Shown here: positions 16,050 to 50,192 of the stretch, piece by piece
Position numbering within the stretch: position 1 is the first letter of the stretch
How the letters are laid out: every line of letters starts with the position of its first letter
Assembly: GCA_029934005.1 (NCBI GenBank)
Contig: JAOZNA010000001.1
Span: 1 to 52,100 of the forward strand
Direction: 5' to 3'
From: Candidatus Bathyarchaeota archaeon
Lineage (GTDB): Archaea; Thermoproteota; Bathyarchaeia; Bathyarchaeales; WUQV01
Length of the DNA: 52,100 nt
Translations under genes and position numbers: made by a program
The notes under the pieces: model-generated
Database searches by the model: none
What the model was told of the DNA's origin: nothing
Seen by the model: only the letters and a program-made list of their open reading frames with translations

Positions 16050-16051
16050 AA

Positions 16052-16486: not shown

Positions 16487-16614
16487 AGTTGTTATACTCC
16501 TATGTTTTCAATGGATATAACAACATGCATTTAAGATATATTGTGTGGTTAAGAGCAGATGCATTTAGCTTAAATGTTTGCATATGATTAATTTGTTAAG
16601 AACGAGGGTAGTGT

Positions 16615-22460: not shown

Positions 22461-22478
22461 TGCTCATCTCCCCAAATT

Positions 22479-28109: not shown

Positions 28110-29267
28110 TTATCCACGCCTAGTGAAGGTTCCAAGTACGTAAGCAATCAAAATTGCTAACGATGACAAACCAAAAATCAGTTCCTTAGGATTCACTACA
28201 AAATAAATTCCTACAATTTCTCCACTCGAACTAAAAAGAAACGGCAATAAAATCTCATATACTAATAACCAGTAAATAGCGCATGAAACCAAGACTAGTC
28301 CTAGAGCACGAGATAACGAAATGTCAAAAACTTTTCCGGTAGCAACAATAAGCACTAAAACCGCCCATATATTTGTAATGAACCATACGATAAGTGGCCA
28401 CTGTACTGTTAAATATGGCTGATTTGGGAAAACTATTGGCATGAAAAACTGTAACATTAAAGGAACCATTGCAAAGGCAGTGGCTCTTGCTGTTGCATCG
28501 TAATCTGCGGCTAATTTTAAGAGTTTGCCACCGATGATATATATTATAGCCGAGAGCACAAGCCATTTGATAAATGTTAGGCTAATCCATATGCTTGGCA
28601 GTCTTAATGAGTGAATGTCAAAATATAAATTACCCAGCAGAAGAATGTCTATTGGAGAGTTTCCTATTGATTCAGTAATCCTATTCATGTTCTGGATGTA
28701 TAAGCCACATCCAATAGCACTCAGCACTCCTACAAGAATTACAACTGAAACTGCGTCCCTAATTAATCTCGGCTCAGCTTTTAAAATCTCAAAAAGTTTA
28801 GAATCAAATCTCGCTGCCCTTAAAATTTTTCCAACAAAAGTTTCTGAAGGAGCAACTCTTTTTTGAATCCCCATGAGCCCTCCTATCGCCGCTAATACAA
28901 AGCCAATAATGAACCCTCCTCCAGAGAATAAACTTAAAACCGAGAAAATTATTACAAATAAGCTCGCAGTAGTCACTTTTTCAGGCGAAAAAAGCATATA
29001 TGCCGCACAGAACAGATTCAGGATGGATATGGTAAGCCATATTGCTATCCAAATTCCTTGACAAAAACTTGGAATTCCGAGGGATATTCGGTACCACAAT
29101 GAAGTATCTCCCTGAAGTAATTCATCTATTGAAGAAATGGAATGTGAATAAATTACAATACTTGAACCGTTAAAACTTACTATTAGACAGTTTATAAGTA
29201 TGAGTAATGTACCAAATAGAGCCAATATCGCTGCGATATTCATTTTCTTCATTTTGTTCACTTCCAT
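28110..29267 (-). CDS. polytopic membrane protein, C-terminal half Yip1-like
   Basis: 385 aa with about 9 TM segments. The second half (FVGKILRAARFDSKLFEILKAEPRLIRDAVSVVILVGVL...) resembles Yip1-domain proteins. Function unknown. Confidence 0.5.
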   Translation of the reverse strand: MEVNKMKKMNIAAILALFGTLLILINCLIVSFNGSSIVIYSHSISSIDELLQGDTSLWYRISLGIPSFCQGIWIAIWLTISILNLFCAAYMLFSPEKVTTASLFVIIFSVLSLFSGGGFIIGFVLAAIGGLMGIQKRVAPSETFVGKILRAARFDSKLFEILKAEPRLIRDAVSVVILVGVLSAIGCGLYIQNMNRITESIGNSPIDILLLGNLYFDIHSLRLPSIWISLTFIKWLVLSAIIYIIGGKLLKLAADYDATARATAFAMVPLMLQFFMPIVFPNQPYLTVQWPLIVWFITNIWAVLVLIVATGKVFDISLSRALGLVLVSCAIYWLLVYEILLPFLFSSSGEIVGIYFVVNPKELIFGLSSLAILIAYVLGTFTRRG

Positions 29268-30005: not shown

Positions 30006-31013
30006 TCATTTTTCCCTCCTACTTGAATAAAGATGACATGCTACGAAGTGTTTGTTCCCCACATCAACAAGTTTCGGTTCCCTTGTTTTACATACGTTTC
30101 CTATAAATTCTGGACATCGTGTATGGAATCTACATCCAGACGGTGGGTTAATTGGGCTTGGAACTTCGCCTTTCAGTACGACCTCTATTCGCTTAGCAGC
30201 TGGGTCGGGACTTGGGACAGCTGCTATCAACGCTTTCGTATAAGGATGAAGTGGTTCATATACGATTTGATCTACAGTTCCCATCTCCATTATCTTTCCA
30301 AGATACATTACTGCGATTCTGTCGCAAATATGCCTGGCTAATGCTAAATCATGTGTAATGTACATGAATGAAACATTATATTTTCTCATTAACTCAAACA
30401 TAACATTGAGCACTTCTGCTCTAATGGAGGCATCTAACATTGAAACTGGTTCGTCAGCAACTATGAACTCTGGATTCAAAACTAATGCCCTTGCTGTTGC
30501 CACTCTCTGTCTTTGACCACCACTTAATTCATGTGGATACCTATAGATAAATTCTTCCGGAGGAACTAGCTGGACATCTTCTAAAGCTTTAAAAACCTTT
30601 TCTTCTACTTCATGTTCTTCCTCTGCTACACCTTGAACTCTGATAGGCTCAGCAATAATATCAAAAATGGTCATTCTCGGATTTAATGATTCATATGGGT
30701 CTTGAAATATTATTTGCATCTTTCGTCTGTAAACCTTGAAATCTTTTTCGGGTAAGCCTGTTATATCCTTTCCTTCAAACAATATCTTACCTGAGGTTGG
30801 TTCTATTAACTTTAATATCAGCCTTCCAGTAGTTGTTTTACCACTGCCACTTTCACCAACAAGTCCAAAGATTTCTCCCTTTTTGATGTCAAAGTCTATT
30901 CCATCAACCGCTCGAACAAAAAGTTCTTTTCTACTAATTATACTTTCAAAAAATCCTAAACGTACAGGAAACCATTTTTTAAGGTTAATCACTTTAATTA
31001 TTTCTTCCGCCAT
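30006..31013 (-). CDS. oligopeptide/dipeptide ABC transporter ATP-binding protein (OppF/DppF-like)
   Basis: Walker A GESGSGKTT, LSGGQRQRVATARAL, FIVADEPVSMLD. The C-terminal Opp-type Cys motif PPSGCRFHTRCP...C...C is present. Confidence 0.9.
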   Translation of the reverse strand: MAEEIIKVINLKKWFPVRLGFFESIISRKELFVRAVDGIDFDIKKGEIFGLVGESGSGKTTTGRLILKLIEPTSGKILFEGKDITGLPEKDFKVYRRKMQIIFQDPYESLNPRMTIFDIIAEPIRVQGVAEEEHEVEEKVFKALEDVQLVPPEEFIYRYPHELSGGQRQRVATARALVLNPEFIVADEPVSMLDASIRAEVLNVMFELMRKYNVSFMYITHDLALARHICDRIAVMYLGKIMEMGTVDQIVYEPLHPYTKALIAAVPSPDPAAKRIEVVLKGEVPSPINPPSGCRFHTRCPEFIGNVCKTREPKLVDVGNKHFVACHLYSSRREK

Positions 31014-31028
31014 TTTTAATCACCCATG

Positions 31029-32027
31029 CTATGCTGGATGAATCAGATGACAAGCTACAAAATGCCCTTTTTCTACTTCTACAAGTTCAGGGTCTTTCTT
31101 TCGGCATATAGGCATTGCATACTTGCATCTAGGATGGAATCTACATCCTGGAGGTGGATCTAAGAGATCTGGTGGTAGTCCTGGAATGGAAACCATTCTT
31201 TGTTTGGGTGCTTTTATGTCTGGGAATGCTCCAATCAAGCCTTGGGTGTATGGATGTAATGGTTCTTTAAATATTTTGTAGACATCTGCATTTTCGACAA
31301 GGCGTCCAGCATACATTATAGCTGCTTTTTCGCATGTTTCTGAGATTAATGAAAGGTCATGGGTAATCATAATCATTGCTAATCCTAATTGTTCGCTAAG
31401 TGTCTTAAGGAGTTTTAGTATTTGGGCTTGAACGATAACATCTAATGCAGTTCCAGGCTCATCAGCGATAAGCAACTTAGGATTACAGGCTAGTGCCATA
31501 GCAATCATGGCACGTTGCCTCATCCCACCGCTAAATTCATGGGGATAGTTAACTACTCTTGAAGGTTCAATTCCGACAAGCTCAAAAAGCTTTCTTGCTC
31601 TCTCTTTGGCTTCATTTTTAGTTACTTCTGGTTCATGGGTCTGAATAGCCTCAACTATTTGATCTTCGATTGTGTAGACGGGATTCAGTGCATTCATTGC
31701 CCCCTGAAATATTATTGAAATTTCCTTCCATCGAATCCGTTCTCTCATTGTTGAGTCATCTAGTTTTGTGAGGTCTATTCCTTCATAGAGGATTTGACCA
31801 CCAACTATTTGTCCGCCCGGCGGTAAAATTCTTAGAATTGAAAGTGCAATAGTTGTTTTTCCACATCCAGATTCGCCTGCAAGTCCAAGTTTTTCTCCCT
31901 TTTCTAGTGAAAATGACACATTTTCAACAGCTTTGACGTACCCTCTTAGGATCCTGTAATAGGTTGTTAAGTTTTTTAATTCTAGGAGCGTCATCTTTCC
32001 ACCGACAACTTTGATTATGAGTAACAA
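31029..32027 (-). CDS. oligopeptide/dipeptide ABC transporter ATP-binding protein (OppD/DppD-like)
   Basis: Walker A GESGCGKTT, FSGGMRQRAMIAMAL, LLIADEPGTALD, and the C-terminal motif PPPGCRFHPRCKY...C. The probable true start is the internal Met (MTLLELKNL) at 31994. Confidence 0.9.
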   Translation of the reverse strand: MLLIIKVVGGKMTLLELKNLTTYYRILRGYVKAVENVSFSLEKGEKLGLAGESGCGKTTIALSILRILPPGGQIVGGQILYEGIDLTKLDDSTMRERIRWKEISIIFQGAMNALNPVYTIEDQIVEAIQTHEPEVTKNEAKERARKLFELVGIEPSRVVNYPHEFSGGMRQRAMIAMALACNPKLLIADEPGTALDVIVQAQILKLLKTLSEQLGLAMIMITHDLSLISETCEKAAIMYAGRLVENADVYKIFKEPLHPYTQGLIGAFPDIKAPKQRMVSIPGLPPDLLDPPPGCRFHPRCKYAMPICRKKDPELVEVEKGHFVACHLIHPA

Positions 32028-34050: not shown

Positions 34051-36120
34051 TTAACGTCTTATTCTAAGTTTTGGGTTCAGAACTTCGTCGAGTGCAAATC
34101 CTAGGAGGATGAATGAAAATGCTAGTGCTGCAATACATAATCCTGGAGGTATCACCCACCACCATGCGTATGTCGAAAGTCCATATTGCTGGGCATCATG
34201 CAACATTCTTCCCCACGACATTCTCCATGGATCAAAGAATCCTAACCAACTTAGAGCGGCTTCTGCAACAATGGCTCCCGGAACCGATGTGGCTAATGTT
34301 ACATAAACAAGTCCCATTACATTGGGTAGTATGTGCCTCATGAGAATATGACTTCTACCAGCTCCAGCTGCCTTCGCTGCTTCAACGAAAGGTCTTTCTC
34401 TTAAGCTAAGAACTTGCGACCTTACTTGTCGGGCGAATCCCATCCATCCTAACAGCCCCATAAGAATTATGAGATTTTCGATTTTTGCGCCTAATACTGC
34501 CATTAATACTATTAGTAGAGGGAGGAAGGGTATTACAAGTAACATATCTGCAAATCTCATTAGTATCTCGTCTACTGCTCTTCCCGAGTAGCCAGCTACT
34601 AATCCAACTACCAATCCTATTACTACGCTACAGACGGATGATAGAGTGCCGACATATAGCGATACCCATGTTCCGTAAATGAGCTGGGAGAAAAGATCTC
34701 TTCCGTATTGGTCTGTCCCTAGCAGGCCCCAGCATGTGCCAAAGAATCGTAAGGATAGGTTATCAATGTAAACAATTGTTTCGATTGTTTCAGGTTCAAT
34801 TACTTCCGTTTTTGCTTTTACATCTTTGAAAGATACTGACCCAGTTACTAATTCTTGAATTCCGTACTGATTTGGAATGGAAAAGGAGATTGGGAACACT
34901 ATTGGGTCAGCGTGGTTTGGGACGTGTACTTTGAGTTTTCCTGAAATTTCGATTTCTTTTTTATAGACACGGAAACTTGATTCTTTAATTGATACGTCGT
35001 ATTCTCCATCTTTTATGAGTGGTGGCAAACGGAGAATTTGGTGCGTGTTCAAGTTTACTGGCAATTCGTATATAGTTTCATTATTTTCTAACTTTATTAT
35101 CCCCATTAAAGTTATTTTACCTGTTAAGGTTAGATTTGACGGATATATCTCTTCGTCCATGAAGACCATTTCCACACCGTAGGTATAATTCCCCTCTCCG
35201 GATACTATGGTTCTAAGGTCTAATCTCTTGTTTGGGAATCCGTAGAGTCCTTCTCTCTCTATGAAATTCCTTCCGCTTGAACTTATAGTTGATTGTTTTG
35301 TTGTTATCCAACCAGACGTATCTCCGTTGCGTGGTTTACTTATATAGACTTCACCTGAATATTCATCCGGAGGATTGCTATGTGGGTTGATAACCGTTTT
35401 GTTAACTTCATATCCTTTGGGCACTATGACGCCTTGTGTTCCTGATGGAACCCATTCGATGTTATGTCCGAATTCTCCTTTTAATTTGCTTGGTGGAGGC
35501 CAAAGATACCACTTTTTTCCATCAGATAATCTTTCGATGTAAACCCATGCTTCGACTGGCACGAATAAGTGAGTTGCTGAAGTTCCATTTACCAATAACG
35601 TTACTGATCCTGAGAGTTCTCCTGGGGGGCCCGAGTAGGGCCAGTAGAATTCAGATTCTACTTGGACTTTTACTCTGCCTTCCGGTTGGGTATTTGGGTT
35701 TCGTTTGTAAGTAACCGCTATGCACCCCTCTGGGCTGTTTGGATAATTTACGTAATAGTTTGGTTCAACTTTAAGCTGTCCATTGGTGAGGTCTGATAAA
35801 ATTTTGTATCTCCATCCTTGCTCTAGAGGATTTTTTACTGCTATCATGTTTTCAGAAAGTTCGGGACCGCCACCTAGCCATGTCGGTAAATATCTTGCCC
35901 ATGAAGGTTTTGCCCAAGGGCTTGAAACACCTTGGTGTATAGGTGCATTATGTGGGACACCTAATTGGTTATAGGGAGTAAGGAGTGGAGCGCATATGGC
36001 TATTAATAAGAATGCTAATATTATCACTACTCCTACTACGCCTTGTTTTTTACGGAAGAATACTTTAGTGAAGTTAAGTAATCTTTTTATGTTGAATTTT
36101 AGCTTTTTTTTGGATATCAT
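34051..36120 (-). CDS. oligopeptide/dipeptide ABC transporter permease (OppC/DppC-like) with large extracytoplasmic insertion
   Basis: The OppC N-terminal TM (VVGVVIILAFLLIAICAPLLTPY) and the canonical core (LLGTDQYGRDLFSQLIYG... EAA loop FVEAAKAAGAGRSHILMRHILPN) are separated by about 400 aa of beta-rich sequence. Total length is 689 aa. Confidence 0.85.
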   Translation of the reverse strand: MISKKKLKFNIKRLLNFTKVFFRKKQGVVGVVIILAFLLIAICAPLLTPYNQLGVPHNAPIHQGVSSPWAKPSWARYLPTWLGGGPELSENMIAVKNPLEQGWRYKILSDLTNGQLKVEPNYYVNYPNSPEGCIAVTYKRNPNTQPEGRVKVQVESEFYWPYSGPPGELSGSVTLLVNGTSATHLFVPVEAWVYIERLSDGKKWYLWPPPSKLKGEFGHNIEWVPSGTQGVIVPKGYEVNKTVINPHSNPPDEYSGEVYISKPRNGDTSGWITTKQSTISSSGRNFIEREGLYGFPNKRLDLRTIVSGEGNYTYGVEMVFMDEEIYPSNLTLTGKITLMGIIKLENNETIYELPVNLNTHQILRLPPLIKDGEYDVSIKESSFRVYKKEIEISGKLKVHVPNHADPIVFPISFSIPNQYGIQELVTGSVSFKDVKAKTEVIEPETIETIVYIDNLSLRFFGTCWGLLGTDQYGRDLFSQLIYGTWVSLYVGTLSSVCSVVIGLVVGLVAGYSGRAVDEILMRFADMLLVIPFLPLLIVLMAVLGAKIENLIILMGLLGWMGFARQVRSQVLSLRERPFVEAAKAAGAGRSHILMRHILPNVMGLVYVTLATSVPGAIVAEAALSWLGFFDPWRMSWGRMLHDAQQYGLSTYAWWWVIPPGLCIAALAFSFILLGFALDEVLNPKLRIRR

Positions 36121-36126
36121 TTTTGT

Positions 36127-37203
36127 TCACCCATACTTTATTCGTGGGTCAATGATTCCGTAAAGTAGATCCGCTACAAAGTTTGCCACTATTACGCATA
36201 TGGCTATGACATAGAAGATTGGCATTAGAATTGCGTAATTTCTTTGTGCAATTGCTCCCCAAACCCATCGTCCCAGACCTGGGTATGTGAATACTGCTTC
36301 AGTTATTATTGCACCTGTTAGTATGAAACCGAAACTTAGGGCTGCGCTTGTTATAAGTGGGAGCGAAGCGTTTTTAAGTGCATGTTTAAAGAGTACTGTT
36401 CTTTCGGGTACTCCTTTTGCTCGTGCTGTTATTATGTAGTCTTCAGTTAGGCTTTCAAGCATAACTGCTCGTGTGAGGAGTATCCATCCTCCGTAAGAGA
36501 AGAGTATTAATGTTAGCATTGGCAGGAAAGAGTGTCGTAGGAATCCTTGTATTACAACTATTGTGTCGGAAGTTAGTAGTAAATTAATGCTGAGGCCACT
36601 TGAGGCTTGTGATACTTCTATTGAGTATGGGTGGGGTGGGTTAATTGCCCAGCCAGTTGGAAGCCCGTGGGCTGATGGGAACCACCCTAGGTGTATGGAG
36701 AATATAAGTATGAAGACCATTCCTATCCAAAATGTTGGTAGTGAATAGGTTACTATGGATGTTAATACCATTATGTTATCAAATTTTCCCCCTCTTTTAA
36801 AGGCTACTAGTACTCCGAGAGCTACTCCTATTATTATCGAAATTATTGTTGATGTTCCTATTAGGTAAAGTGTCCATGGAAGTTTTTCAAGCATTTCGGC
36901 GGCGACTGGTCTCCATGTTACTAGTGATTTTCCGAAGTTCCATGTGAGAAGTCTTATCAATGTTTTGTAAAATCTTATATGTATTGGTTCATGCAGCCCA
37001 TAAAGTTCTTCTATTTCATGACGCCATTTTTCGTATTCTTCTTTTGGCATATTTCCTGGGGGTGGCATGAAGAGTGATGATGGATCGCCTGGCATTAACA
37101 TGAAAATTATGAAGTTTAATGTTATTACGAAGAACAATAGTATGATTGAGTAGATTACTCGCTTGACTATATACATCCTTAGCCCCATTGCTATTTCCTC
37201 CAT
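36127..37203 (-). CDS. oligopeptide/dipeptide ABC transporter permease (OppB/DppB-like)
   Basis: MYIVKRVIYSIILLFFVITLNFIIF N-terminus and EAA loop EDYIITARAKGVPERTVLFKHALKNA, with 6 TM segments. The probable start is an internal Met (MGLRMYIVKR or MYIVKR). Confidence 0.88.
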   Translation of the reverse strand: MEEIAMGLRMYIVKRVIYSIILLFFVITLNFIIFMLMPGDPSSLFMPPPGNMPKEEYEKWRHEIEELYGLHEPIHIRFYKTLIRLLTWNFGKSLVTWRPVAAEMLEKLPWTLYLIGTSTIISIIIGVALGVLVAFKRGGKFDNIMVLTSIVTYSLPTFWIGMVFILIFSIHLGWFPSAHGLPTGWAINPPHPYSIEVSQASSGLSINLLLTSDTIVVIQGFLRHSFLPMLTLILFSYGGWILLTRAVMLESLTEDYIITARAKGVPERTVLFKHALKNASLPLITSAALSFGFILTGAIITEAVFTYPGLGRWVWGAIAQRNYAILMPIFYVIAICVIVANFVADLLYGIIDPRIKYG

Positions 37204-37337: not shown

Positions 37338-40097
37338 ATGAAAAAGGAAGCTTTTAATGCGATAGTGATAGCATTAATTATTGTGGTTCTTTGCATATCT
37401 ATTGCTCCAGTGATGGCTTGGACTTATGACGATTGCACTTCAGACGAAAAATATGAGAAGTTTGGGCCTAGGACTGACAACTTGCTGTTTGTTATGTATT
37501 CTGATGCTCCCGGTGAGTATACTGGTTTGGAGGCCGGCGAAATTGACATGCTTGAGTGGGCGATTACAAAGGATCTGGTGGACAAGTGGACTGCGCCTCC
37601 ATGGAACGAAAAGATAAAGGTTGTCTCTTACGGTGCAGAGTTAGGATTTTTCCTCATAGACATTAACTGTTTGCCGACCTATCCAGGAGACTACGAGAGA
37701 GGAGCTCAAGGCGAGGATAACCCAACTAGGGTTCCGTGCATGAGGCATGCGCTTTGGCACGTGATGAACCGAACCCACGTGACTGAAGTAATTTATAAGG
37801 GTCTGGCTGTTCCAATTTATACGCCTGTTCCACCCTCACTCCCAGCATACCAGCATCCAGATATAATTCCAGGCGGCGCAAAGGAGGTTCTAACACACCC
37901 ATACGACTGTGAATATGCTAAACAAATCTTGGACACTTGTGATGAAGACCCAGCTGATGGTATGCCAGACTTTCCAGTCAACCCTGACACGGGCTGGAGG
38001 TTCTGGGACAAGAACGGAAACGGCGTTGAAGATCCAGATGAGTATTTGGAGCTTTGGTTCTACATAAGAATCGACGACCCATTAAGAAATGCTATGGGAG
38101 ACTACTTCGCAGATGAAATTGAAGACTGCCTACAAATCCGCGTAAACAGAAGATACAAGGACGTTTATGGCGCTTGGTTCAGCGTAATGCTAGAACACGA
38201 ATTCAACCTCTACACGGGCGGATGGTCATTAGGCGCAGACCCAGACCATCTAGTGTTATGGCACAGCGACTACTACTGGTATCCAGGCTTCTGCTACAAC
38301 TACGGCGGAATGAACTGCTCAACCTACGACTACTGGGTGGACAAGCTCCTGGAAGCCCCAACCTGGGACGAACTAAAAGAAGCATGCTACCAAGCCCAAT
38401 TAATCTTTAACTCACCATACACGCCAGAAGAAGGCTACACATGCGACTGCCCCGGCGGAGCCATGGGATCTATACCAGTCCTATCATTCCAAGGATTTAA
38501 GGCGTATAGAAGACGCTACACAGGCGGAACAGACGAGCAGCTAGTTTCACCAGACGACGGAGAAAACCAGTATAGAGGACTAACATGGAAGGGAATAGTA
38601 AACGTTCCGGCTATGGGTCCAGACCCAACCGGAATGGGCTACAGCATGCTAAACATGCATCCAGAATGCCACCCAATGGGCGACTGCTCTCACATGACAA
38701 TAAGAGTAGGCTTCAAAGTAGACGAGTTAGAGAAGCCAGGCAACCCAGTTTATGCTGAGTGGCTTTGGGACAACGTAGTTTGGGGATTGTGTCATGAAAG
38801 CCTACTGGCAAGAGACCCATACACGTGGGAGTGGATGCCCTGGCTGGCAAAAGACTATGAACTGTTCACTTGGATAGATCCGGTAACAGGCGAAGAAAAA
38901 GTTGGTGTGAGGCTTCACTTAAGGCCAAACGTTTACTGGAGCGACGGAGAACCAGTAACAGCTGCAGACGTGATGTATTCGCTTGTTGAGATGGACGACG
39001 AACTAATGGCTATTGGATTGCCTCCGCCATGGTGGTATAGCAACGTAGTCTACATCAAAAGCATGTATATAATTGACCCACTAAACATTGAAATTCTGCT
39101 TGATACGAAAAGCGTTTTGGCAGTAGGATGGGTAGGCGGATCTGCAATCTTCCCCAAGCATATATGGAAACACCTAATTGAACTGGCTGCTCAAGGAAAA
39201 ATCGACTTGACTATTCCTGCTCCAGACCCCAACATGATAGGAGCAGGCCCATTCAGGTTTGCAGAATACAACCCAGAAGGCTACTACTGCAAGCTAGTGG
39301 CGAACAAGCCAGGCTTAGAAATAGAGCCAGTATGGCCAACAGGTTTCTGGGATGAAGACTATCCGCCAAAACTAACAAAAAACCCATATGGATACTTCCG
39401 CTACAACCCAGTCTACGTAAACGTTCATGCAGTATCGCCAGAGTACTACTTGACAAGATTTAATCTGCCGCATGACCCAGGAAAACCGCCAACAGTCACA
39501 AGCCTACCAATCGAAATAGAAATAACCCTCAAAAACTTGTGGCTTAACCAGTGCAGCGGAGGCTACCTAATAGTAAACAAGTACGTGTACTACTCTGACC
39601 CATCAGTAAGCACATGGTGCGGACCAGGCGAACTAGAATTGCTACCAGGCTACCCAGAAGACGTAATACTAGAAACCCTACCAGACGGAACAATAATTCC
39701 GCATAAAGAGAACATAATTAAAGAAATTCCGGCTGGCAGCGCGGCATGCGGAAATCCAGCCTGGATCAAAGTCGCAATCCACATCAAAGGACCAGAAATG
39801 CTTGATTCGGAGCATCCTAACCCATGGATTTGCAGATGGATAAACTTCACCTTACCAATAGCAATAACAATCAGAGAAGACACAGCTGGACAATTCTACT
39901 GCGGAAACGATCAGATCCCCGCACCAGATTTCAAAGTAGACCTATACGACGTTTACAGAGCAGCAATGGCGTTCGCAAGCTATCCAGGACACCCAGCTTG
40001 GGATTCGGTACACGATATAACAGGCGACTACCAAGTGGACCTAGCAGACTACTACGCCATCTGCCAAATGTTCGGCTGGGAAGCACCAGCTCCTTAA
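37338..40097 (+). CDS. ABC transporter substrate-binding protein, family 5 (peptide/nickel type), extended, with C-terminal dockerin-like tail
   Basis: N-terminal signal/anchor (AIVIALIIVVLCISIAPVMA). Family-5 SBP-like segments are present (YGAELGFFLIDIN, NVYWSDGEPVTAADV, MIGAGPFRFAEYNPEGYY). At 919 aa it is much longer than the usual 500-600 aa. The last about 56 aa resemble the dockerins of neighbouring genes. Confidence 0.85.
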   Translation: MKKEAFNAIVIALIIVVLCISIAPVMAWTYDDCTSDEKYEKFGPRTDNLLFVMYSDAPGEYTGLEAGEIDMLEWAITKDLVDKWTAPPWNEKIKVVSYGAELGFFLIDINCLPTYPGDYERGAQGEDNPTRVPCMRHALWHVMNRTHVTEVIYKGLAVPIYTPVPPSLPAYQHPDIIPGGAKEVLTHPYDCEYAKQILDTCDEDPADGMPDFPVNPDTGWRFWDKNGNGVEDPDEYLELWFYIRIDDPLRNAMGDYFADEIEDCLQIRVNRRYKDVYGAWFSVMLEHEFNLYTGGWSLGADPDHLVLWHSDYYWYPGFCYNYGGMNCSTYDYWVDKLLEAPTWDELKEACYQAQLIFNSPYTPEEGYTCDCPGGAMGSIPVLSFQGFKAYRRRYTGGTDEQLVSPDDGENQYRGLTWKGIVNVPAMGPDPTGMGYSMLNMHPECHPMGDCSHMTIRVGFKVDELEKPGNPVYAEWLWDNVVWGLCHESLLARDPYTWEWMPWLAKDYELFTWIDPVTGEEKVGVRLHLRPNVYWSDGEPVTAADVMYSLVEMDDELMAIGLPPPWWYSNVVYIKSMYIIDPLNIEILLDTKSVLAVGWVGGSAIFPKHIWKHLIELAAQGKIDLTIPAPDPNMIGAGPFRFAEYNPEGYYCKLVANKPGLEIEPVWPTGFWDEDYPPKLTKNPYGYFRYNPVYVNVHAVSPEYYLTRFNLPHDPGKPPTVTSLPIEIEITLKNLWLNQCSGGYLIVNKYVYYSDPSVSTWCGPGELELLPGYPEDVILETLPDGTIIPHKENIIKEIPAGSAACGNPAWIKVAIHIKGPEMLDSEHPNPWICRWINFTLPIAITIREDTAGQFYCGNDQIPAPDFKVDLYDVYRAAMAFASYPGHPAWDSVHDITGDYQVDLADYYAICQMFGWEAPAP
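39927..40094 (+). other. degenerate dockerin-like module at the C-terminus of the binding protein
   Basis: DFKVDLYDVYRAAMAFASYPGHPAWDSVHDITGDYQVDLADYYAICQMFGWE aligns column by column with GVIDLVDVYVVSMTFGTYEGHPNWNPDADLNQDGQIDLFDIYMVSKNFAKE (44618 gene). The first Ca loop is lost and the second is partly kept. Confidence 0.65.
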
Positions 40098-40121
40098 GTT
40101 TCCAAAGGAAGCCCCTAACAA

Positions 40122-40312: not shown

Positions 40313-42712
40313 ATGAAAAAGTGGTTTATGAAATCGTTAGTGATAGCAGTAGCTGCGATATTCCTTTTGAGTGTTTTTGGCGCAATAAACATTAAGCCAG
40401 CAAAAGCTGCGAGCATTCATATATGGACGGTTCCGTCAACAATAAGCTACACAACTGAAACGATGCCTGCTTCGGGTAGATTTAATGTTTCATTCTGGAT
40501 AGAGACTGACATAGGGATTGGCGGAGTTCAGGTTGTTCCAATATATGAGCATGGTGTTATTAATGTTACAAGATGGTTCGAGCCGACCTGGGACACCAAC
40601 TATATATTCTGGGGACAAGGAACTTCTGCCAGTCCAGTTCCACCAAAAACTGGTTACATTTACATAAATACAACTCATTCAAAGGCTAAACAAGCGGTCA
40701 ACTTGTTCCCGACGCCACCTGCCCAGCCAGCTTTCAAGGGGACGGGCTTGGTATACATTTTGGAGTTCGAGATTGTCGGGGTTCCTGATAAGTATGAAAC
40801 TTTGGATTCGTTGATTTACATTGATACCGCTGAGACCTACGTCATGGACGAGACTGGTGCAAAGATTGATGTTTTCCAGAAGGATGGTGCTTATTACTCG
40901 CTTGAATGGGCTATGCCTCCAGCGCCCTATATGGGTGTTGAACCCACACTCGTAGAATACGACCAGTTCACGGATGCTGTCGGCCAAGTTTTCCAAGTTG
41001 ACCTCTACATTAAGAACTTGGCTGAAGCTTGGCACCTATCTAATGCAAGCTTTAAGCTTGTTTATAACGCGACAATAATCGACGTTATTGGCGACATGGG
41101 TAATGTTAGCATAGCACCAATTTGGGGTACTTACACAGTTACTTTCCACCGAGACCCAGATCCAGCGGTCCTTGATTACATTGAGTTTGTGGTTAAGGAT
41201 CCAACTGAAACTCCTGGTGGTACAACTCCGGCTGACGAGCTGGTTGCGTCAATTAACTTCACTGTACAATTACAGATGCCTGGTCCGCCAGTAGGATATA
41301 TTGAGTCGCCGTTGGACTTCACGGATGTTTCATTCTATGATACGGTTGGGCCGATTACGCCTGATGCTCCAATAAATGGTATAGTGAGAATCTGGAACAG
41401 ACTACCACTACCACTACCATGGTTTGAGGTACAACCAGACCTAGTAGAATTCGGGCCAGCCTATGAAGTTGGAACTACATTTAGCATTGATGTAGTTCTA
41501 ACTGGTCCAGACCCAACTGGCCTACACTACGCATGGTACGCAATCGGATGGCAATTAAGACTACTCTACGACGCAGACCTCCTCGATGTAGTTAATGTAG
41601 AAGAAGGACCATTCCTAAAGGATGGACCATGGAACCTACACGGAACATTCTTCACAAGCAGAGTAGAATCAGACGGTGTGTACGGACCACATGTAGTAAT
41701 GGCTGAAATGCTCTTACCTAACGCCAGCACTGGAGAATGGGACATGACAGTATGGCCCAACGGAACAGGCGTAATAGCAACAATAACATTTGAAATAATA
41801 AAGCAGGACATCAGTTGCGACCTAAGTCATTACTACGAATCCGAGTTTGGTCTCGCACCAGTATTCAATAACTGGATAATCAGCAAGGATGGAACATGGA
41901 TACCAGTAAATGAAACCCAAAATGTAAATGGTACATATAGAATTTATGATTCTCCAATATTGGGAAGACAAATTGACCTTTACGGTGGAGCAAACAACGC
42001 TGGCTATGGTGCATCTGTATTCCCAGAACCATACGGCGGACAAGGACCAAACAACCCAATGGACCTAGTAATTCCACAGTCAGAAGTATACCTCTACGCC
42101 CTAGTAACCTATAACTGCTGGCCAGTACAATCAAAGATTGTAAGCTTCGAAATACAATATCCAAACGGCACAGCATTCGCCAAATTCACAGCAATAACAA
42201 ACGCTTCAGGTGTTGCGTCCATAACGTTCAGAATGCCATGGCCATGTGATAATCCAGAAGACTTGTTCGGAGTATGGAAAGTAATCGCAACTGTTGATAT
42301 AGCAGATGTAGTCGTTAACGACACCATGGAATTCCACTACGACTACATGATACACATATGGAAAGTAACAACAGACAAATACTACTATGCACACGGAGAA
42401 TATGTGCAGATAACAGTTGAATACGGCACGCATGCACAACAATCCTATCCAGGACTATTCACTGTAGTGATTACAGATGACCTTGGTGTTCCAATAGGCT
42501 TAGATGCAAGCTTCATACTAAACATTACTGGAGCAGTATTCTGTCAATACTACAATGATAGCTTCACAGTGTCAATCTTCATACCGAAGTGGGCTTATGC
42601 GGGCTATGCATACGTGCACGTTAACTGCTATGACAAGGAGCCTGCCGAAGGCGGCTTCGCATGGTGTCCAGAATACACGCCTGCACCAGAGATATTCATC
42701 AAACCAGAGTAG
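40313..42712 (+). CDS. secreted multi-cohesin-like protein (family N-module plus two cohesin-like modules plus two Ig-like C-terminal domains)
   Basis: Signal peptide ending AKA/AS. The family N-module spans 40409..40909 (IHIWTVPSTI...FNVSFWIETD..GGVQV...WFEPTW...NLFPTPP...GTGLVYILEFEI). Two further modules carry cohesin-type patterns (VFQVDLYIKNL...FKLVYNATIIDV; FSIDVVL...WQLRLLYDADLLDVVNVEEGPFL...GTGVIATITFEI). No dockerin and no C-terminal anchor. Confidence 0.75.
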   Translation: MKKWFMKSLVIAVAAIFLLSVFGAINIKPAKAASIHIWTVPSTISYTTETMPASGRFNVSFWIETDIGIGGVQVVPIYEHGVINVTRWFEPTWDTNYIFWGQGTSASPVPPKTGYIYINTTHSKAKQAVNLFPTPPAQPAFKGTGLVYILEFEIVGVPDKYETLDSLIYIDTAETYVMDETGAKIDVFQKDGAYYSLEWAMPPAPYMGVEPTLVEYDQFTDAVGQVFQVDLYIKNLAEAWHLSNASFKLVYNATIIDVIGDMGNVSIAPIWGTYTVTFHRDPDPAVLDYIEFVVKDPTETPGGTTPADELVASINFTVQLQMPGPPVGYIESPLDFTDVSFYDTVGPITPDAPINGIVRIWNRLPLPLPWFEVQPDLVEFGPAYEVGTTFSIDVVLTGPDPTGLHYAWYAIGWQLRLLYDADLLDVVNVEEGPFLKDGPWNLHGTFFTSRVESDGVYGPHVVMAEMLLPNASTGEWDMTVWPNGTGVIATITFEIIKQDISCDLSHYYESEFGLAPVFNNWIISKDGTWIPVNETQNVNGTYRIYDSPILGRQIDLYGGANNAGYGASVFPEPYGGQGPNNPMDLVIPQSEVYLYALVTYNCWPVQSKIVSFEIQYPNGTAFAKFTAITNASGVASITFRMPWPCDNPEDLFGVWKVIATVDIADVVVNDTMEFHYDYMIHIWKVTTDKYYYAHGEYVQITVEYGTHAQQSYPGLFTVVITDDLGVPIGLDASFILNITGAVFCQYYNDSFTVSIFIPKWAYAGYAYVHVNCYDKEPAEGGFAWCPEYTPAPEIFIKPE

Positions 42713-42849: not shown

Positions 42850-44508
42850 GTGATTGGTGAAGCATTTATGCAAAATCAAAAAAGAATAGAAAAACATCTA
42901 CTAGGCATATTTTCAATAACGTTCATAATTATCGCATTCTTAGCTAACCTTTCCCTTCTAACAATGGAAGAAAACACAGAACCCCTAACACCCCCCCTCA
43001 CCATAACAGCCCAAACAAACAAACAATCCTACCTCCTAAGACAAAAAATCTACATCCAAGGAAACATAACCCTAGACGGCACACCAGTATCAGACGCCTA
43101 CATAATACTCCAAATAAACAACCCACAAGACCAACCAACAACCTTCAGAACAATCCAAATAGGAAACCCAACCCAACACATGCCAATCAAAATACTAGAC
43201 ATCTCCATAACAGACCACGAAAACAACCCACTAGATACAATTCAAATCGGAACAAGCATACGAGTAATAGTAAAAGTCAACAACCCAGAACTAACCTCAC
43301 AAAACATATTCATAACAGCAACAGTCTTCGACGCCAACATGGTTCCAATCCAAACAGGCTTCTTAGAAACAACAATTCTACCAGAACAAACAATATCACC
43401 AAAATTCACAATATATATACCAAAATGGGCAATCTCAGGTAAAGCCCTAATATGCGCAAACGTATACAACAAAGAACCAAAACAAGGCGGAATAGCCTAC
43501 GCAAAAGAAAGAGCAGAATACTTCTACATAAGCAAAATCCAAAAAGGATACCTAGAACTCCCAGAAATCCAATTCCAAGACATACAAAACACGCCCGGAA
43601 AATACCAAACCTACATAACCCTACCACCAGACCCAAAAGCAGGAGAATACACCGCATACATCACAGGACAAGTAGACCCAATAACAATAAACCAAGAAAC
43701 AATCACATTCCAAGTGCAACAATCATCAGGCTACCCACCACAAGCATCATTCGCATACTGGCCAACCCCCTCCTACGAAAACATGACCCTAACCTTCGAC
43801 GCCTCATCATCAACAGCAGAAGGATTCAACGACACAATAATAAAGTATGAATGGGATTTCGGAGACGGAACACCAAAAATAATCAAAGAAGGAAACTACA
43901 CAAACCCACCAGACCCAACCATAACCCACGCATACACAACACCAGGCAACTACACAATAACCCTAAACGTAACAGACAACGAAGGACTATGGAGCACAAC
44001 CACAAAACCAATAGAAATACTGCCAGAATTCGGCCCAACAGCAGACTTCGAATGGTCACCATACCAACCATGGGTAAACCAAACAATAACCTTCAACGCC
44101 TCAAAAACCACAGTTGGCTGGTGCGCAAAAACAGCAAGATTCAGCCCAATAGCTAACTACGAATGGGATTTCGGAGACGGAACATCACCAATAACAACAA
44201 CAAACCCAATAATAACCTACAACTACACCCAACCAGGCAACTACTCAGTAACCCTAACAGTAACCGACGAAGATGGAAGAATAGACTCAGTAACTTACAC
44301 GATTGAAGTCTTAAATGTAACAACCAAATACTGCGACATAGACGGCGACGGAATGATTGACCTAGTAGACGTATATACAGTAGCAATGCATTTTGCCGCA
44401 GAAGAAGGAGACCCCAACTACGATCCAAGATGCGACATAGACGGCGACGGAGTAATTGACCTATTCGACTACTACACAGTATGCATGCACTACGGAGAAG
44501 ACCCCTAA
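42850..44508 (+). CDS. secreted PKD-repeat protein with C-terminal dockerin
   Basis: The likely start is ATG 42868, with GGTGA 8 nt upstream. It has a signal/anchor helix. An N-terminal two-domain unit is shared with the C-terminus of the 40313 gene (IPKWAISGKALICANVYNKEPKQGG). Two PKD repeats (YEWDFGDGT...H.Y..PGNY.[IV]TL.VTD) are followed by a duplicated dockerin. Confidence 0.85.
   Translation: MIGEAFMQNQKRIEKHLLGIFSITFIIIAFLANLSLLTMEENTEPLTPPLTITAQTNKQSYLLRQKIYIQGNITLDGTPVSDAYIILQINNPQDQPTTFRTIQIGNPTQHMPIKILDISITDHENNPLDTIQIGTSIRVIVKVNNPELTSQNIFITATVFDANMVPIQTGFLETTILPEQTISPKFTIYIPKWAISGKALICANVYNKEPKQGGIAYAKERAEYFYISKIQKGYLELPEIQFQDIQNTPGKYQTYITLPPDPKAGEYTAYITGQVDPITINQETITFQVQQSSGYPPQASFAYWPTPSYENMTLTFDASSSTAEGFNDTIIKYEWDFGDGTPKIIKEGNYTNPPDPTITHAYTTPGNYTITLNVTDNEGLWSTTTKPIEILPEFGPTADFEWSPYQPWVNQTITFNASKTTVGWCAKTARFSPIANYEWDFGDGTSPITTTNPIITYNYTQPGNYSVTLTVTDEDGRIDSVTYTIEVLNVTTKYCDIDGDGMIDLVDVYTVAMHFAAEEGDPNYDPRCDIDGDGVIDLFDYYTVCMHYGEDP
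43741..44310 (+). other. two tandem PKD domains (approximate limits)
   Basis: The motifs WDFGDGT, THAYTTPGNYTITLNVTDNEG and YNYTQPGNYSVTLTVTDEDG occur twice, about 95 aa apart. Confidence 0.85.
44326..44505 (+). other. dockerin module (two EF-hand-like Ca loops)
   Basis: DIDGDGMIDLVDVYTVAMHF...DPRCDIDGDGVIDLFDYYTVCMHYG. Both 12-residue loops fit D-x-[DN]-x-D-G-x-[IV]-D-x-x-D. Confidence 0.9.
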
Positions 44509-44617: not shown

Positions 44618-46465
44618 ATGAGAAAAACCATAACTTTTATATTAATAATTTTCCTCTCAATAGCAACACTCAGCATTCTAACAATTAACCCATCCCAAGC
44701 CCAAGAAGGAACAAGAATCTACACAATCCCCTCAACAATCATCAGATACTACAACGACACCTACGTAGGTTATCGCTTTAATGTTAGTTTCTGGATTGAA
44801 ACAGACCAGGAAGTCGGCGGAGTCCAAATCACTACCATCTTCAAACACAACATCATAAACGTAACCCAATGGTGGGAACCAAAATGGGACCCCAACTACA
44901 TATTCTACGGAGAAACAACCTCAGCCCTACCATACCCACCAAACCCAGGCTACACCCAGATAAACTCAACCCACTCCAGATCAAAAATAGCAGTAAACCT
45001 ATTCCCACCACCACCCACCCAAACACCATTCACAGGAACAGGCCTAATAGCCATACTAGAATTCGAAGTTAAAGTAATACCTCCAGAAAATGAAACCTAC
45101 AAATCCCCAATCTCAATAGACAACCCAGGCACATATATAATGCTTGCCGACGGGACTCAACTCAAAGAATTCACAAAAGAAAACGGATATTATGAAATAC
45201 ATGGTCCACCACCTCCACCAACTGGAACAAGAATTTTCATTGATCCACCAGAAATAATCGATCCAACAATGACTCCATCATCAATCTTTGACATAAACAT
45301 AACAATAGACGACTTCTTAGACATGAAAGTATGCATATTCAATCTGAGTTACGACCCCAACGTAATTGGCTATGTAACATTTGAAATCTTTCGAATCAAC
45401 GGAGAATTTCCAACATCGAAAATAATAGCTGACGACGAGGCAGGCTACGTTTGGGTAAAACTAAACTATTCAACACCAGTCACAACCTACGATCCACTAG
45501 CAATAATCCAAATAACATTCCACGTCGAAACATACGGATCAACCCCCCTCGACCTCCACGACACAAACATAACAGATCCAACTGGAACCCCAATAGAACA
45601 TGACGTCTACGACGGCTTCTTCGCCACACTAATACGCGACGTAGCAGTAACCGACATAATTCCATCAAGAACATGGACCTATGAAGGAACACCAATAAAC
45701 ATCACAGTAACCGTCAAAAACAAAGGAAATGTAAGCGAAACCTTCGACTTAACTCTATACTACGACTCCAACATAATAGAAACCAAAACAGTAACAGACT
45801 TACCTTCAGGTGAGGAAAGAAATGTAACGTTCACATGGGATACCACAGGAATTCCGGAAGGAAACTACACAATATCCGCTGAAGCCTCATATGTCCCCTA
45901 CGAATTCGACCCAACCGACAACTCCTTGACAGATGGCACAATATGGATAATGGAAAGAATTCACGATGTAGCAATAATAGACGTAGTAGTACCACGTTCA
46001 TGGGTTTACCAAGGCTGGCAAATCAACATCACAGTAACAGCCAAAAACCAAGGAAACTTCACAGAAACCTTTGATGTCACCCTATACTTCAACCAAACCC
46101 AAATAAAAACATGGAACATAATCGACTTGCCAGCTGGAGAAAAAATAGAACTGCAAATAACCTTAAACACTTCCCAATTCCAACCCTGCAGCAACTTCTC
46201 AATATGGGCGGAAGCCTCCCAAGTCCCCTACGAATACAACCTAACAAACAACATATTTTACGATGGTTACCTAAAAATCCGCCTCTACGGTGACATAAAC
46301 GGCGACGGAGTGATCGACTTAGTAGACGTATACGTAGTCTCCATGACATTCGGAACTTACGAAGGACATCCAAACTGGAATCCAGATGCAGACCTAAACC
46401 AAGATGGTCAAATAGACCTATTCGACATTTACATGGTATCTAAAAACTTCGCAAAAGAATGTTAA
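44618..46465 (+). CDS. secreted cohesin-like / CARDB-repeat protein with C-terminal dockerin (adaptor-like)
   Basis: Signal peptide (...INPSQA/QE), family N-module 44711..45199, and a PPPPP linker. A cohesin-like module follows (IFDINITIDDFLDMKVCIFNLSYDPNVIGYV...LAIIQITFHV). Then come two CARDB-type repeats and a duplicated dockerin. Confidence 0.85.
   Translation: MRKTITFILIIFLSIATLSILTINPSQAQEGTRIYTIPSTIIRYYNDTYVGYRFNVSFWIETDQEVGGVQITTIFKHNIINVTQWWEPKWDPNYIFYGETTSALPYPPNPGYTQINSTHSRSKIAVNLFPPPPTQTPFTGTGLIAILEFEVKVIPPENETYKSPISIDNPGTYIMLADGTQLKEFTKENGYYEIHGPPPPPTGTRIFIDPPEIIDPTMTPSSIFDINITIDDFLDMKVCIFNLSYDPNVIGYVTFEIFRINGEFPTSKIIADDEAGYVWVKLNYSTPVTTYDPLAIIQITFHVETYGSTPLDLHDTNITDPTGTPIEHDVYDGFFATLIRDVAVTDIIPSRTWTYEGTPINITVTVKNKGNVSETFDLTLYYDSNIIETKTVTDLPSGEERNVTFTWDTTGIPEGNYTISAEASYVPYEFDPTDNSLTDGTIWIMERIHDVAIIDVVVPRSWVYQGWQINITVTAKNQGNFTETFDVTLYFNQTQIKTWNIIDLPAGEKIELQITLNTSQFQPCSNFSIWAEASQVPYEYNLTNNIFYDGYLKIRLYGDINGDGVIDLVDVYVVSMTFGTYEGHPNWNPDADLNQDGQIDLFDIYMVSKNFAKEC
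44765..45072 (+). repeat. near-identical nucleotide block shared by three paralogs (copy 1)
   Basis: The string gtaggttatcgctttaatgtt...gaaacagaccaggaagtcggcggagtccaaatcactaccatcttcaaacacaacatcataaacgtaacccaatggtgggaacc recurs almost base for base at 46728 and 50374. The tail cccactccagatcaaaaatagcagtaaacctattcccaccaccaccc...ccatactagaattcgaagttaa is identical to copy 3. Confidence 0.85.
45635..46280 (+). other. two tandem CARDB-like domains (approximate limits)
   Basis: RDVAVTDIIPSRTWTYEGTPINITVTVKNKGNVSETFDLTLYYD...LPSGEERNVTFTWDT and HDVAIIDVVVPRSWVYQGWQINITVTAKNQGNFTETFDVTLYFN...LPAGEKIELQITLNT. Confidence 0.8.
46283..46462 (+). other. dockerin module (two EF-hand-like Ca loops)
   Basis: LYGDINGDGVIDLVDVYVVSMTFGTYEGHPNWNPDADLNQDGQIDLFDIYMVSKNF. 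Confidence 0.9.
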
Positions 46466-50072: not shown

Positions 50073-50192
50073 ATTGAGTTAAACTACATTTTCAGAATAT
50101 AAATCCAGAAAAATATTCTAGAGTAAAACTATACGAACAGTAAATTTCATATATAATATCAATTGTAACTATTGGTTTAGGTGAAAATTGGA

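Follow-up and report, generated by a model that had tools for sequence, protein, structure and literature searches.

The stretch of DNA analysed here (the window) comprises 52,100 nucleotides from a Candidatus Bathyarchaeota archaeon (GenBank assembly GCA_029934005.1, contig JAOZNA010000001.1, positions 1 to 52,100 of the forward strand). The element under study is the C-terminal tail of a solute-binding protein (SBP), the receptor of an Opp-type ATP-binding cassette (ABC) peptide importer, together with the cohesin and dockerin genes encoded directly downstream. The tail is related to the dockerins of bacterial cellulosomes, and its likely role is to attach the receptor to a cohesin-bearing scaffold.

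The receptor, its transporter and the neighbouring cohesin genes

The SBP gene (37338..40097, plus strand) is an open reading frame (ORF) of 919 amino acids (aa) encoding a family-5 (OppA/NikA-type) binding protein, with a Pfam SBP_bac_5 match at E 7e-31. The AlphaFold2 (AF2) model of the full-length protein has a mean predicted local distance difference test score (pLDDT) of 87.3 and a predicted template-modelling score (pTM) of 0.85, and is closest to YntA, NikZ, OppA and T. kodakarensis OppA in Foldseek searches (E 7e-14 to 5e-13). Signature, fold and the OppBCDF-type gene context place the protein in family 5 (cluster C), but its domain order is not colinear with that of the solved members. 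Positions 137-332 of the SBP family profile (alignment A3) correspond to AppA (1xoc) residues 279-456, and positions 503-629 to AppA residues 84-206. The SBP_bac_5 match at aa 38-308 corresponds to profile positions 139-358, and the Foldseek alignment to any solved SBP covers only about 340 columns. Since the matches to SBPs in the PDB occur in permuted order, the family is a circular permutation of OppA/AppA-type binding proteins. Normal domain order is found in SBPs with canonical dockerins at the related loci L018, L033, L010 and L028.

A putative Sec signal peptide occupies aa 1-27 (37338..37418, plus strand; MKKEAFNAIVIALIIVVLCISIAPVMA, followed by WTY), as judged from sequence, hydrophobicity and motif conservation. 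The N-terminal 60 aa reach a Kyte-Doolittle (KD) maximum of 3.09, AF2 places a helix at 2-21, and the hydrophobic region is followed by a PVxA/W motif (PVMA/W in the window) in which P24 and W28 are at least 90% conserved across 73 homologues. No conserved lipobox was found at the N-terminus of the homologues. The N-terminus looks like a typical Sec-type signal, in agreement with the initial annotation of the locus, which had proposed a cleavable signal here. Between the SBP core and the tail lies an all-beta region of about 210 aa (39255..39896, plus strand; approximate boundaries), for which AF2 predicts strands only (aa 639-844).

The other transporter genes are on the minus strand, with the OppB-type permease gene (36127..37203; NCBIfam Opp2B/Opp4B, E 2e-72) divergent from the SBP gene. 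It is accompanied by a 689-aa OppC-type permease (34051..36120; Pfam OppC_N at 19-52 and BPD_transp_1 at 502-686; NCBIfam Opp4C) and by the OppD (31029..32027; NCBIfam, E 1.7e-94) and OppF (30006..31013; NCBIfam, E 2.8e-106) ATPases. OppC contains an extracytoplasmic insert of about 410 aa between its first transmembrane (TM) segment and the permease core, and a profile of this insert gave no match in Pfam or the PDB. Archaeal OppC homologues range from 480 to 884 aa with inserts that are conserved neither in sequence nor in length, and a TM-anchored SBP is also paired with a long OppC (504 aa).

Downstream of the SBP gene, the plus strand carries six genes encoding cohesin-like modules, dockerins or both. 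The nearest (40313..42712) encodes a secreted 799-aa protein, here called the tri-cohesin protein, with three tandem cohesin-like modules and a C-terminal beta region of about 250 aa (Pfam Cohesin, E 3e-7). The only PDB entries matched by a profile of four orthologues are cohesins, at 49-184, 204-341 and 366-502 (E 0.004-0.28). By its position and modules this protein is the candidate scaffold for docking. It is followed by a 552-aa protein (42850..44508) with two PKD domains (PKD_4, E 5e-31) and a canonical C-terminal dockerin that passes the Pfam Dockerin_1 model (24.0 bits; cut-off 22.9). The 615-aa product of the next gene (44618..46465) combines cohesin-like modules (coh800 profile, positions 5-312; weak Pfam Cohesin match, E 2e-3), two CARDB domains (E 1e-18) and a canonical dockerin (31.4 bits against the same cut-off, E 2e-7), and by this domain composition looks like an adaptor. 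Two cohesin paralogues follow: a 567-aa protein with two cohesin-like modules (46556..48259; coh800 profile 14-355, E 1e-67) and a 543-aa protein (48427..50058; Pfam Cohesin, E 2.8e-5; coh800 profile 10-356), both of which end in PEFP, a hydrophobic helix and a basic tail. The sixth gene is a cohesin-bearing ORF cut by the window end (50181..52100; Pfam Cohesin, E 5.8e-7; coh800 profile 5-540). A multi-cohesin scaffold is therefore encoded together with dockerin proteins, as in cellulosome-like systems. No glycoside hydrolase or carbohydrate-binding module (CBM) was found in the window ORFs scanned, where the dockerin carriers are the SBP and the PKD and CARDB proteins.

The dockerin-like tail

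The dockerin-like module occupies aa 854-915 (39897..40082, plus strand), as given by the orthologue P0001 (92% identical), in which these residues match profile positions 1-62. The tail sequence quoted in the initial annotation is an exact translation within 39900..40100; the tail had been located correctly, with a start (39927) slightly later than that of the family profile (39897, aa 854). Repeat 1 (IPAPDFKVDLYDVYRAAMAFA; aa 860-880; 39915..39977, plus strand) consists of a proline-rich stretch in place of calcium loop 1, followed by helix 1. The inter-repeat linker (SYPGHPAWDSVH; 39978..40013, plus strand) carries the PGHxxW motif common to canonical Bathyarchaeial dockerins; its tryptophan is invariant in the SBP tails (alignment A1, 74 tails) and nearly invariant in the canonical dockerins (alignment A4, 28 sequences from Bathyarchaeial loci). 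Repeat 2 (DITGDYQVDLADYYAICQMFG; aa 893-913; 40014..40076, plus strand) has a near-canonical calcium loop, with tyrosine at position 6, and then helix 2.

Canonical dockerins carry a full set of D/N calcium ligands at loop positions 1, 3, 5, 9 and 12 of both repeats. In the SBP tail this set is incomplete: the repeat 1 loop IPAPDFKVDLYD has I and A at positions 1 and 3, where D and N are expected (ligand row I, A, D, D, D), and the repeat 2 loop DITGDYQVDLAD largely retains its ligands (D, T, D, D, D). This agrees with the earlier description of a replaced first loop and a partly retained second one. Calcium binding has probably been lost in loop 1, whose positions 2 and 4 are proline and whose positions 1 and 3 are not acidic, and has probably been kept in loop 2. 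With loop 1 replaced by a Pro-x-Pro-Asp turn, the module probably binds one calcium ion, not two.

In the initial annotation the tail was aligned with the C-terminal sequences of two proteins encoded further downstream, 42850 (second gene after the SBP) and 44618 (third gene), both of which pass Dockerin_1. A relationship to these neighbours is borne out by BLASTP searches with the 65-aa tail (E 3e-13 to the 42850 dockerin, 24/50 identical and ungapped; E 7e-13 to the 44618 dockerin, 22/52 identical). Comparison of A1 with A4 in hhalign gives a probability of 99.8% and E 6e-29 over 53 columns. The A1 profile matches only dockerins in the PDB, with 2y3n_B the best (E 7e-7) and 4wi0_B, 5g5d_B, 2b59_B, 4u3s_B, 3kcp_A and 5k39_B at E 5e-6 to 3e-5. 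The tail of the full-length AF2 model has a pLDDT of 84-92 and forms helices at 869-877 (84-91) and 902-910 (87-92), each starting from loop position 10, as in an F-hand. Two tandem loop-helix repeats with the helix start near loop position 10 are the defining layout of a dockerin, and homology and repeat architecture together place the SBP tail in the dockerin superfamily.

Conservation and spread of the variant

The same variant closes at least 74 SBP homologues, a lower bound since the sample consisted of 120 listed homologues, and these include proteins at 30-50% overall identity. The named SBP homologues belong to Bathyarchaeota/Bathyarchaeia. The consensus of the variant is YPYKxQ-lPxPDxKVDxKDvaxAAxAFG-SYPGHxRW-xxxADiNxDYKiDxxDIaxIAxxFGW. 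In the repeat 1 loop, position 1 is L/V/I in 67/74 tails, position 2 is P in 57/74, position 3 is T/S/A and position 4 is P in 65/74, with D at positions 5 and 12 in every tail (74/74). The repeat 2 loop has D at position 1 (72/74), N, T or D at position 3 (48, 13 and 4 of 74, respectively), D at position 5 (68/74), Y at position 6 (71/74) and D at position 12 (74/74). D864, D871, W888, D893, D904 and G913 are invariant in homologues down to 30% overall identity.

Scanning 1.84 billion protein representatives exhaustively with the tail profile gave 10,198 matches at E<=1e-3 and 1,989 at E<=1e-10. Of the best 150 matches, 140 were proteins not returned before, and loop type was tallied for these. 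Variant loops occur in 92/140, of which 81 match the SBP-core hidden Markov model (HMM) and 11 are fragments of 57-245 aa. Canonical loops occur in the remaining 48/140, and 38 of these 48 are non-SBP proteins. All nine variant carriers of odd length are SBP_bac_5 proteins by Pfam, including Peptidase_M14-SBP and beta-propeller-SBP fusions, so that every variant carrier long enough to judge among these best 150 matches is a family-5 SBP. On the scan and Pfam tallies of its carriers, the variant is a subtype that is conserved in, and restricted to, this SBP family.

The fusions include the variant-tail SBPs P0280 (1223 aa), P0374 (1261 aa) and P0242 (1089 aa), joined to a Peptidase_M14 carboxypeptidase or a PQQ-type beta-propeller, and one of the three has two additional internal canonical Dockerin_1 modules. 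An extended dockerin loop of the form D[IV]TG.(E/D)G.PD.K[VC]D is present at L001:15435-16574, L001:16578-17621 and L007:16240-17379 and in P0287 and P0371. Its second half resembles loop 1 of the SBP tail (lPxPDxKVD), and a loop of this kind may have been the route by which the variant arose.

Repeat symmetry and residues shared within a locus

The two repeats of the SBP tail co-evolve within each protein. Repeat 1 and repeat 2 of the same protein agree at positions 9, 10, 11, 14 and 18 with frequencies of 0.88, 0.92, 0.66, 0.86 and 0.50, as against 0.55, 0.29, 0.28, 0.34 and 0.20 when the repeats are taken from different proteins. Over positions 9-11 and 13-19, repeat identity is 0.52, compared with 0.284 +/- 0.013 after permutation. 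In cellulosomal dockerins the positions tested here include the classical cohesin-recognition positions, and repeat symmetry underlies dual binding.

The helix residues of the tail also resemble those of other dockerins encoded at the same locus. In the window, the SBP tail has DLYDVY / DLADYY, and its two neighbours have DLVDVY / DLFDYY and DLVDVY / DLFDIY. The corresponding pairs of SBP tail and neighbouring dockerin are DLKDVF and DLKDVY at L002, DMKDVY and DMRDIY at L007, and DILDAI and NILDAI at L033; the two are identical at L022 (RVDDVL) and L018 (DMADIS). Across 21 loci, identity between SBP tails and non-SBP dockerins of the same locus at positions 10, 11, 13 and 14 is 0.654, compared with 0.212 +/- 0.043 when loci are shuffled (z about 10; 0/5000 shuffles reach the observed value). 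Judged by these alignments, the recognition residues are lineage-specific and common to the SBP tail and the other dockerins of its locus. The window SBP retains its own loop 1 while its helix residues match the neighbouring dockerins. Recent gene conversion in the window was ruled out: the three dockerin-coding stretches share 53-56% DNA identity, and the longest identical run is 9 nt.

The initial annotation had called the tail degenerate. That term does not fit a variant conserved in at least 74 SBPs, whose repeats co-evolve and whose recognition residues vary in step with those of the canonical dockerins encoded at the same locus.

Coupling of the tri-cohesin gene to the transporter operon

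In L001, L002 and L007 the SBP gene is immediately followed by a gene for an orthologue of the tri-cohesin protein (798-844 aa), and the gene order OppB-OppC-OppD-OppF-SBP-tri-cohesin is kept. The association was examined from both sides. On the cohesin side, 35 genome loci were collected, about 24 of them with upstream sequence. A dockerin-tailed SBP_bac_5 protein is encoded directly upstream in 12-13 of these roughly 24 loci, one cohesin gene away in 2 more and within 6.5 kb in 3 more; some of the upstream SBPs have canonical Dockerin_1 modules and normal domain order. The 35 loci come from metagenome-assembled genomes of Bathyarchaeia, apart from one "Shapirobacteria" bin and two records titled as archaeon only. 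The bin in question holds L008 (QMND01000098.1), a 3.7-kb Guaymas contig assigned to 'Candidatus Shapirobacteria' with 87% protein identity to the tri-cohesin gene of the window; it is probably a mis-binned Bathyarchaeial contig, and it hints at Guaymas-type hydrothermal sediment as the source of the window.

On the SBP side, 29 of 80 metagenome loci had adequate flanks. Where OppC lies upstream of the SBP gene, a cohesin gene is present within 1.5 kb downstream in 15/17 loci, compared with 0/12 for orphan SBPs (Fisher p 1.8e-6). This split between operon-linked and orphan SBPs ties the tri-cohesin gene to the transporter operon: the gene belongs to the operon, and orphan SBPs elsewhere carry the same plug.

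What follows the tri-cohesin gene was compared in the window and in L002, L008, L009, L012, L014, L019, L024, L025, L028, L030, L031 and L040, and is usually the gene for a dockerin protein of about 540-570 aa. Two PKD domains with a dockerin were seen in the window and L002, and the other proteins of about 540-570 aa were assigned by size and dockerin match only. At other loci the tri-cohesin gene is followed by genes for dockerin proteins of about 340-380 aa. The SBP gene, the tri-cohesin gene and the dockerin gene or genes after it make up a conserved cassette.

C-terminal anchors

A hydrophobic C-terminal helix followed by basic residues is the classical anchor of archaeal SBPs. Distant homologues of the window SBP (about 590-735 aa; P0097 and P0099-P0120 less P0109, P0116 and P0119) end in such a helix, located at the exact position of the dockerin tail in the SBP family. 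P0109, P0116 and P0119 end in dockerin-like repeats, and homologues at an intermediate distance in canonical dockerins. A hydrophobic segment is absent from the C-terminus of the window SBP (KD maximum 0.39) and present in the 46556 and 48427 paralogues (2.19 and 2.03), and by this feature the 46556 protein is a candidate membrane anchor. The suggestion made at the outset that the receptor is docked onto membrane-anchored cohesin neighbours is compatible with these data in two respects, as cohesin-bearing proteins with a terminal helix and basic tail are encoded nearby and as the tail sits where distant homologues have a TM anchor.

The C-termini of the 46556 and 48427 proteins (PEFP, about 17 hydrophobic residues and a K/R-rich tail) resemble by eye the PEF-CTERM signal of archaeosortases. 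No NCBIfam model for such a sorting signal matched either protein, and no archaeosortase gene was found among the ORFs scanned.

Comparison with known systems

Bacterial cellulosome dockerins (PF00404; 2y3n_B, 2b59_B, 4wi0_B, 5k39_B) share with the SBP tail two C-terminal F-hand repeats of about 21 residues, internal two-fold symmetry at positions 10, 11 and 14 and significant profile similarity, and their cohesin genes, including one for a multi-cohesin protein, are likewise encoded alongside. The SBP tail differs from them in having lPxPD instead of DxNxD in loop 1, tyrosine for glycine at position 6 of loop 2 and a conserved YPYKxQ lead-in before the module, and its window copy is missed by the Pfam model. 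The carrier also differs, being an ABC receptor rather than an enzyme, in an archaeal host and in a locus whose scanned ORFs include no glycoside hydrolase or CBM.

Closer in kind are the dockerin-bearing NikA/OppA- and TroA-type SBPs of anaerobic methanotrophic (ANME) archaea, for which a role in surface attachment has been proposed (Chadwick et al. 2022, PMC9012536). They belong to the same transporter class, and their genomes are rich in cohesin proteins, some of them multi-cohesin. That report is a domain-annotation remark on another phylum, with no partner, synteny or sequence analysis; the Bathyarchaeial system differs from it in an SBP-specific dockerin variant that mostly escapes standard models, a permuted SBP and an Opp operon that includes a tri-cohesin gene. 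That archaeal ABC receptors can carry dockerins is thus already known as an observation, and the initial annotation's remark that such a retention or positioning mechanism had not been seen described no longer applies; its proposals of dockerin origin and of tethering stand. What is new here is, from sequence comparison, a receptor-specific dockerin subtype that co-evolves with the other dockerins of its locus, the presence of the tri-cohesin gene in the Opp operon, and the division of the SBPs into operon-linked and orphan ones. For Archaeoglobus fulgidus, binding has been shown experimentally between non-cellulosomal cohesins and dockerins (Bayer 1999; Haimovitz 2008, cited in PMC9012536). 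These pairs are similarly archaeal and unrelated to cellulose degradation, and differ in their carriers, their canonical loops and the lack of a multi-cohesin scaffold linked to a transporter operon. Timmers et al. 2017 (PMC5244752) give only counts of the domains. The papers searched contained nothing on Bathyarchaeial cohesin-dockerin systems, on calcium-independent dockerins, or on dockerin-OppA proteins beyond PMC9012536.

Other means of holding binding proteins at the surface are well established. Archaeal and Gram-positive SBPs are retained by a C-terminal TM anchor, an N-terminal lipid anchor or fusion to the permease (e.g. van der Heide & Poolman 2002). Dockerin-mediated retention would likewise hold the receptor close to the translocator where no outer membrane encloses the cell, but it would be non-covalent, modular and exchangeable, and would act via a separate scaffold. 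In the Sulfolobus bindosome, sugar-binding proteins with class III signal peptides are assembled by the Bas system. It shares with the present proposal the idea of archaeal binding proteins arranged in a surface assembly instead of floating free, but its pilin-like assembly is a quite different mechanism; the window SBP has no [KR][GA] prepilin-type motif before its hydrophobic region (by eye), and no Bas-like genes were seen.

Proposed mechanism and alternative explanations

It is fairly probable that the tail functions as a dockerin, of a lineage-specific subtype confined to SBPs, and that it tethers the receptor to the cohesin scaffold encoded in the Opp operon. What keeps the receptor at the cell surface is then probably protein docking and not an anchor in the membrane. 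The SBP would be exported through Sec and its signal peptide cut after PVMA. It would carry neither a lipid nor a transmembrane anchor and would be retained by its dockerin plugging into a cohesin module, with one calcium ion bound in loop 2 and the loop of repeat 1 replaced by a rigid turn. The likeliest socket would be the tri-cohesin protein (40313..42712), the membrane-helix paralogues at 46556 and 48427, or both. Because the tail's recognition residues are common to the other dockerins of the locus, all of these probably use the same cohesins, and the PKD, CARDB and beta-helix dockerins would compete with the SBP for them or co-assemble on them. Since the tail is also found on orphan SBPs, several receptors may be served by one scaffold; a single scaffold per transporter would hold the operon SBP and the orphan SBPs of the same tail, concentrated beside OppBCDF.

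A more elaborate arrangement can be put forward only tentatively. The tri-cohesin scaffold could act as a 'binding-protein rack', loaded non-covalently with several different dockerin-tagged peptide receptors and with other dockerin-tagged surface proteins, the single-calcium subtype having evolved for the receptors. It is equally speculative that the racked receptors would comprise the operon copy and orphan copies, some fused to a carboxypeptidase, so that capture and ABC uptake were combined in one exchangeable surface complex.

Several results weigh against a working, scaffold-tethering dockerin. The initial annotation had suggested scoring the tail with Dockerin_1, predicting its structure and applying a formal alignment test. 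The alignments show similarity far beyond chance. Dockerin_1, however, does not match the window tail even at E<=1, alone or in the full protein; it matches 47/74 family tails at that threshold (best E 3.4e-6), leaves 27/74 isolated tails unmatched, and precomputed PF00404 annotation is present on 0/74 full-length family proteins. In structure prediction, the full-length model shows the two helices at a pLDDT of 84-92. The isolated tail, modelled from the 74 tails, reaches a pLDDT of only 65.7, and a Foldseek search of the PDB with this weak model gives no significant match (best E 0.78; TMq 0.43 for dockerin 5k39_B). Loop 1 is without two of the canonical calcium ligands, and calcium is normally required for the folding of canonical dockerins. 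Two of the 17 operon-linked SBP loci have no cohesin gene, and none of the 12 orphan SBPs with the same tail has one nearby. A covariation test, based on mutual information between positions 10, 11, 13 and 14 of the dockerins and the alignment columns of the tri-cohesin protein (22 orthologues), singled out no module (mean z 0.9-1.0 in the three cohesin regions and 0.6 in the C-terminal region; the comparison is underpowered). Older concerted evolution, rather than a shared partner, could be a partial cause of the concordance within loci. Finally, no membrane or cell-wall anchor can be recognised in the tri-cohesin protein (C-terminal KD maximum 0.81), which has only an N-terminal signal-like segment, and this leaves the chain of attachment incomplete.

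This last point is also the starting point for an arrangement of reversed polarity, in which an uncleaved N-terminus anchors the SBP and the dockerin recruits the anchor-less scaffold and other dockerin-tagged surface proteins to the transporter. The strongly hydrophobic N-terminal helix of the SBP (KD 3.09, AF2 helix 2-21) would suit such a role, as would the fact that the cohesin gene is tied to the operon and not to each SBP gene. Nevertheless, the conserved PVxA/W motif obeys the -3/-1 rule and suggests cleavage, distant homologues pair a similar N-terminus with a C-terminal TM anchor, which an anchoring N-terminus would make superfluous, and two paralogous cohesin proteins of the window do end in candidate C-terminal anchors. 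Reversed polarity is accordingly considered quite improbable. Slightly less so, yet still unlikely, is a tail that derives from a dockerin and has been re-purposed, whether to bind the OppC insert, the S-layer or another SBP (oligomerisation), or to serve as a calcium-stabilised structural cap. The SBP-specific replacement of loop 1 would be in keeping with this, the occurrence of the variant on no other protein type hints at an SBP-specific partner, OppC has its unexplained external insert of about 410 aa, and orphan SBPs lack cohesin neighbours. Against it, the recognition helix residues track the canonical dockerins of the same locus with no recent gene conversion in the window, a concordance difficult to account for without a common partner; the tri-cohesin gene is a conserved operon partner; and the OppC insert is variable in sequence and length and also accompanies a TM-anchored SBP. 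As a docking site for the tail, the insert is neither supported nor excluded. That the tail is a decaying relic or a chance, compositional match without function might be suggested by the failure of Dockerin_1 on the window copy and by the two missing calcium ligands. Such an origin is refuted by the conservation and significance tests, namely the pairwise E of 3e-13, the hhalign probability, the match to solved dockerins at E 7e-7, the persistence of the variant with invariant residues across its distant homologues and the co-evolution of the repeats, and it retains next to no likelihood.

Other genes of the window

Beyond the transporter genes, a DUF6114/Yip1-like multi-pass membrane protein is encoded at 28110..29267 (minus strand), with syntenic counterparts at L001:3202-4335, L002:2991-4112 and L007:2380-3522; in these three loci a gene for a NosD/beta-helix surface protein lies beyond it. 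A fragment of a second ABC importer (21357..24137, minus strand) consists of a TOBE-domain ATPase (21357..22460) and a protein of 552 aa that matches BPD_transp_1 twice (22479..24137). A DNA-end-resection cluster (13466..19913, plus strand) encodes HerA (DUF87), a Mre11-like phosphoesterase and a Rad50-like SMC ATPase, and a 359-aa ORF without annotation occupies the NurA position. Ordinary archaeal housekeeping genes, among which HerA-Mre11-Rad50 of this cluster can be counted, make up the rest of the window (GatD/GatE, ELP3, DNA ligase).

Implications

In the textbook view, ABC receptors are retained by a lipid anchor, a membrane helix, fusion to the permease or confinement to the periplasm. 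A dockerin-cohesin tether, if true, would add a further, modular way, in which receptors are exchangeable and placed beside other surface proteins. Censuses of archaeal cohesins and dockerins under-count the variant, because many copies escape the Pfam dockerin model, and variant pairs would be new orthogonal parts for the engineering of protein assemblies. Bathyarchaeia are among the most abundant uncultured archaea of anoxic sediments and are thought to feed in part on detrital protein. A dedicated organisation of peptide receptors at the cell surface, if it exists as proposed, would bear directly on how these archaea feed.

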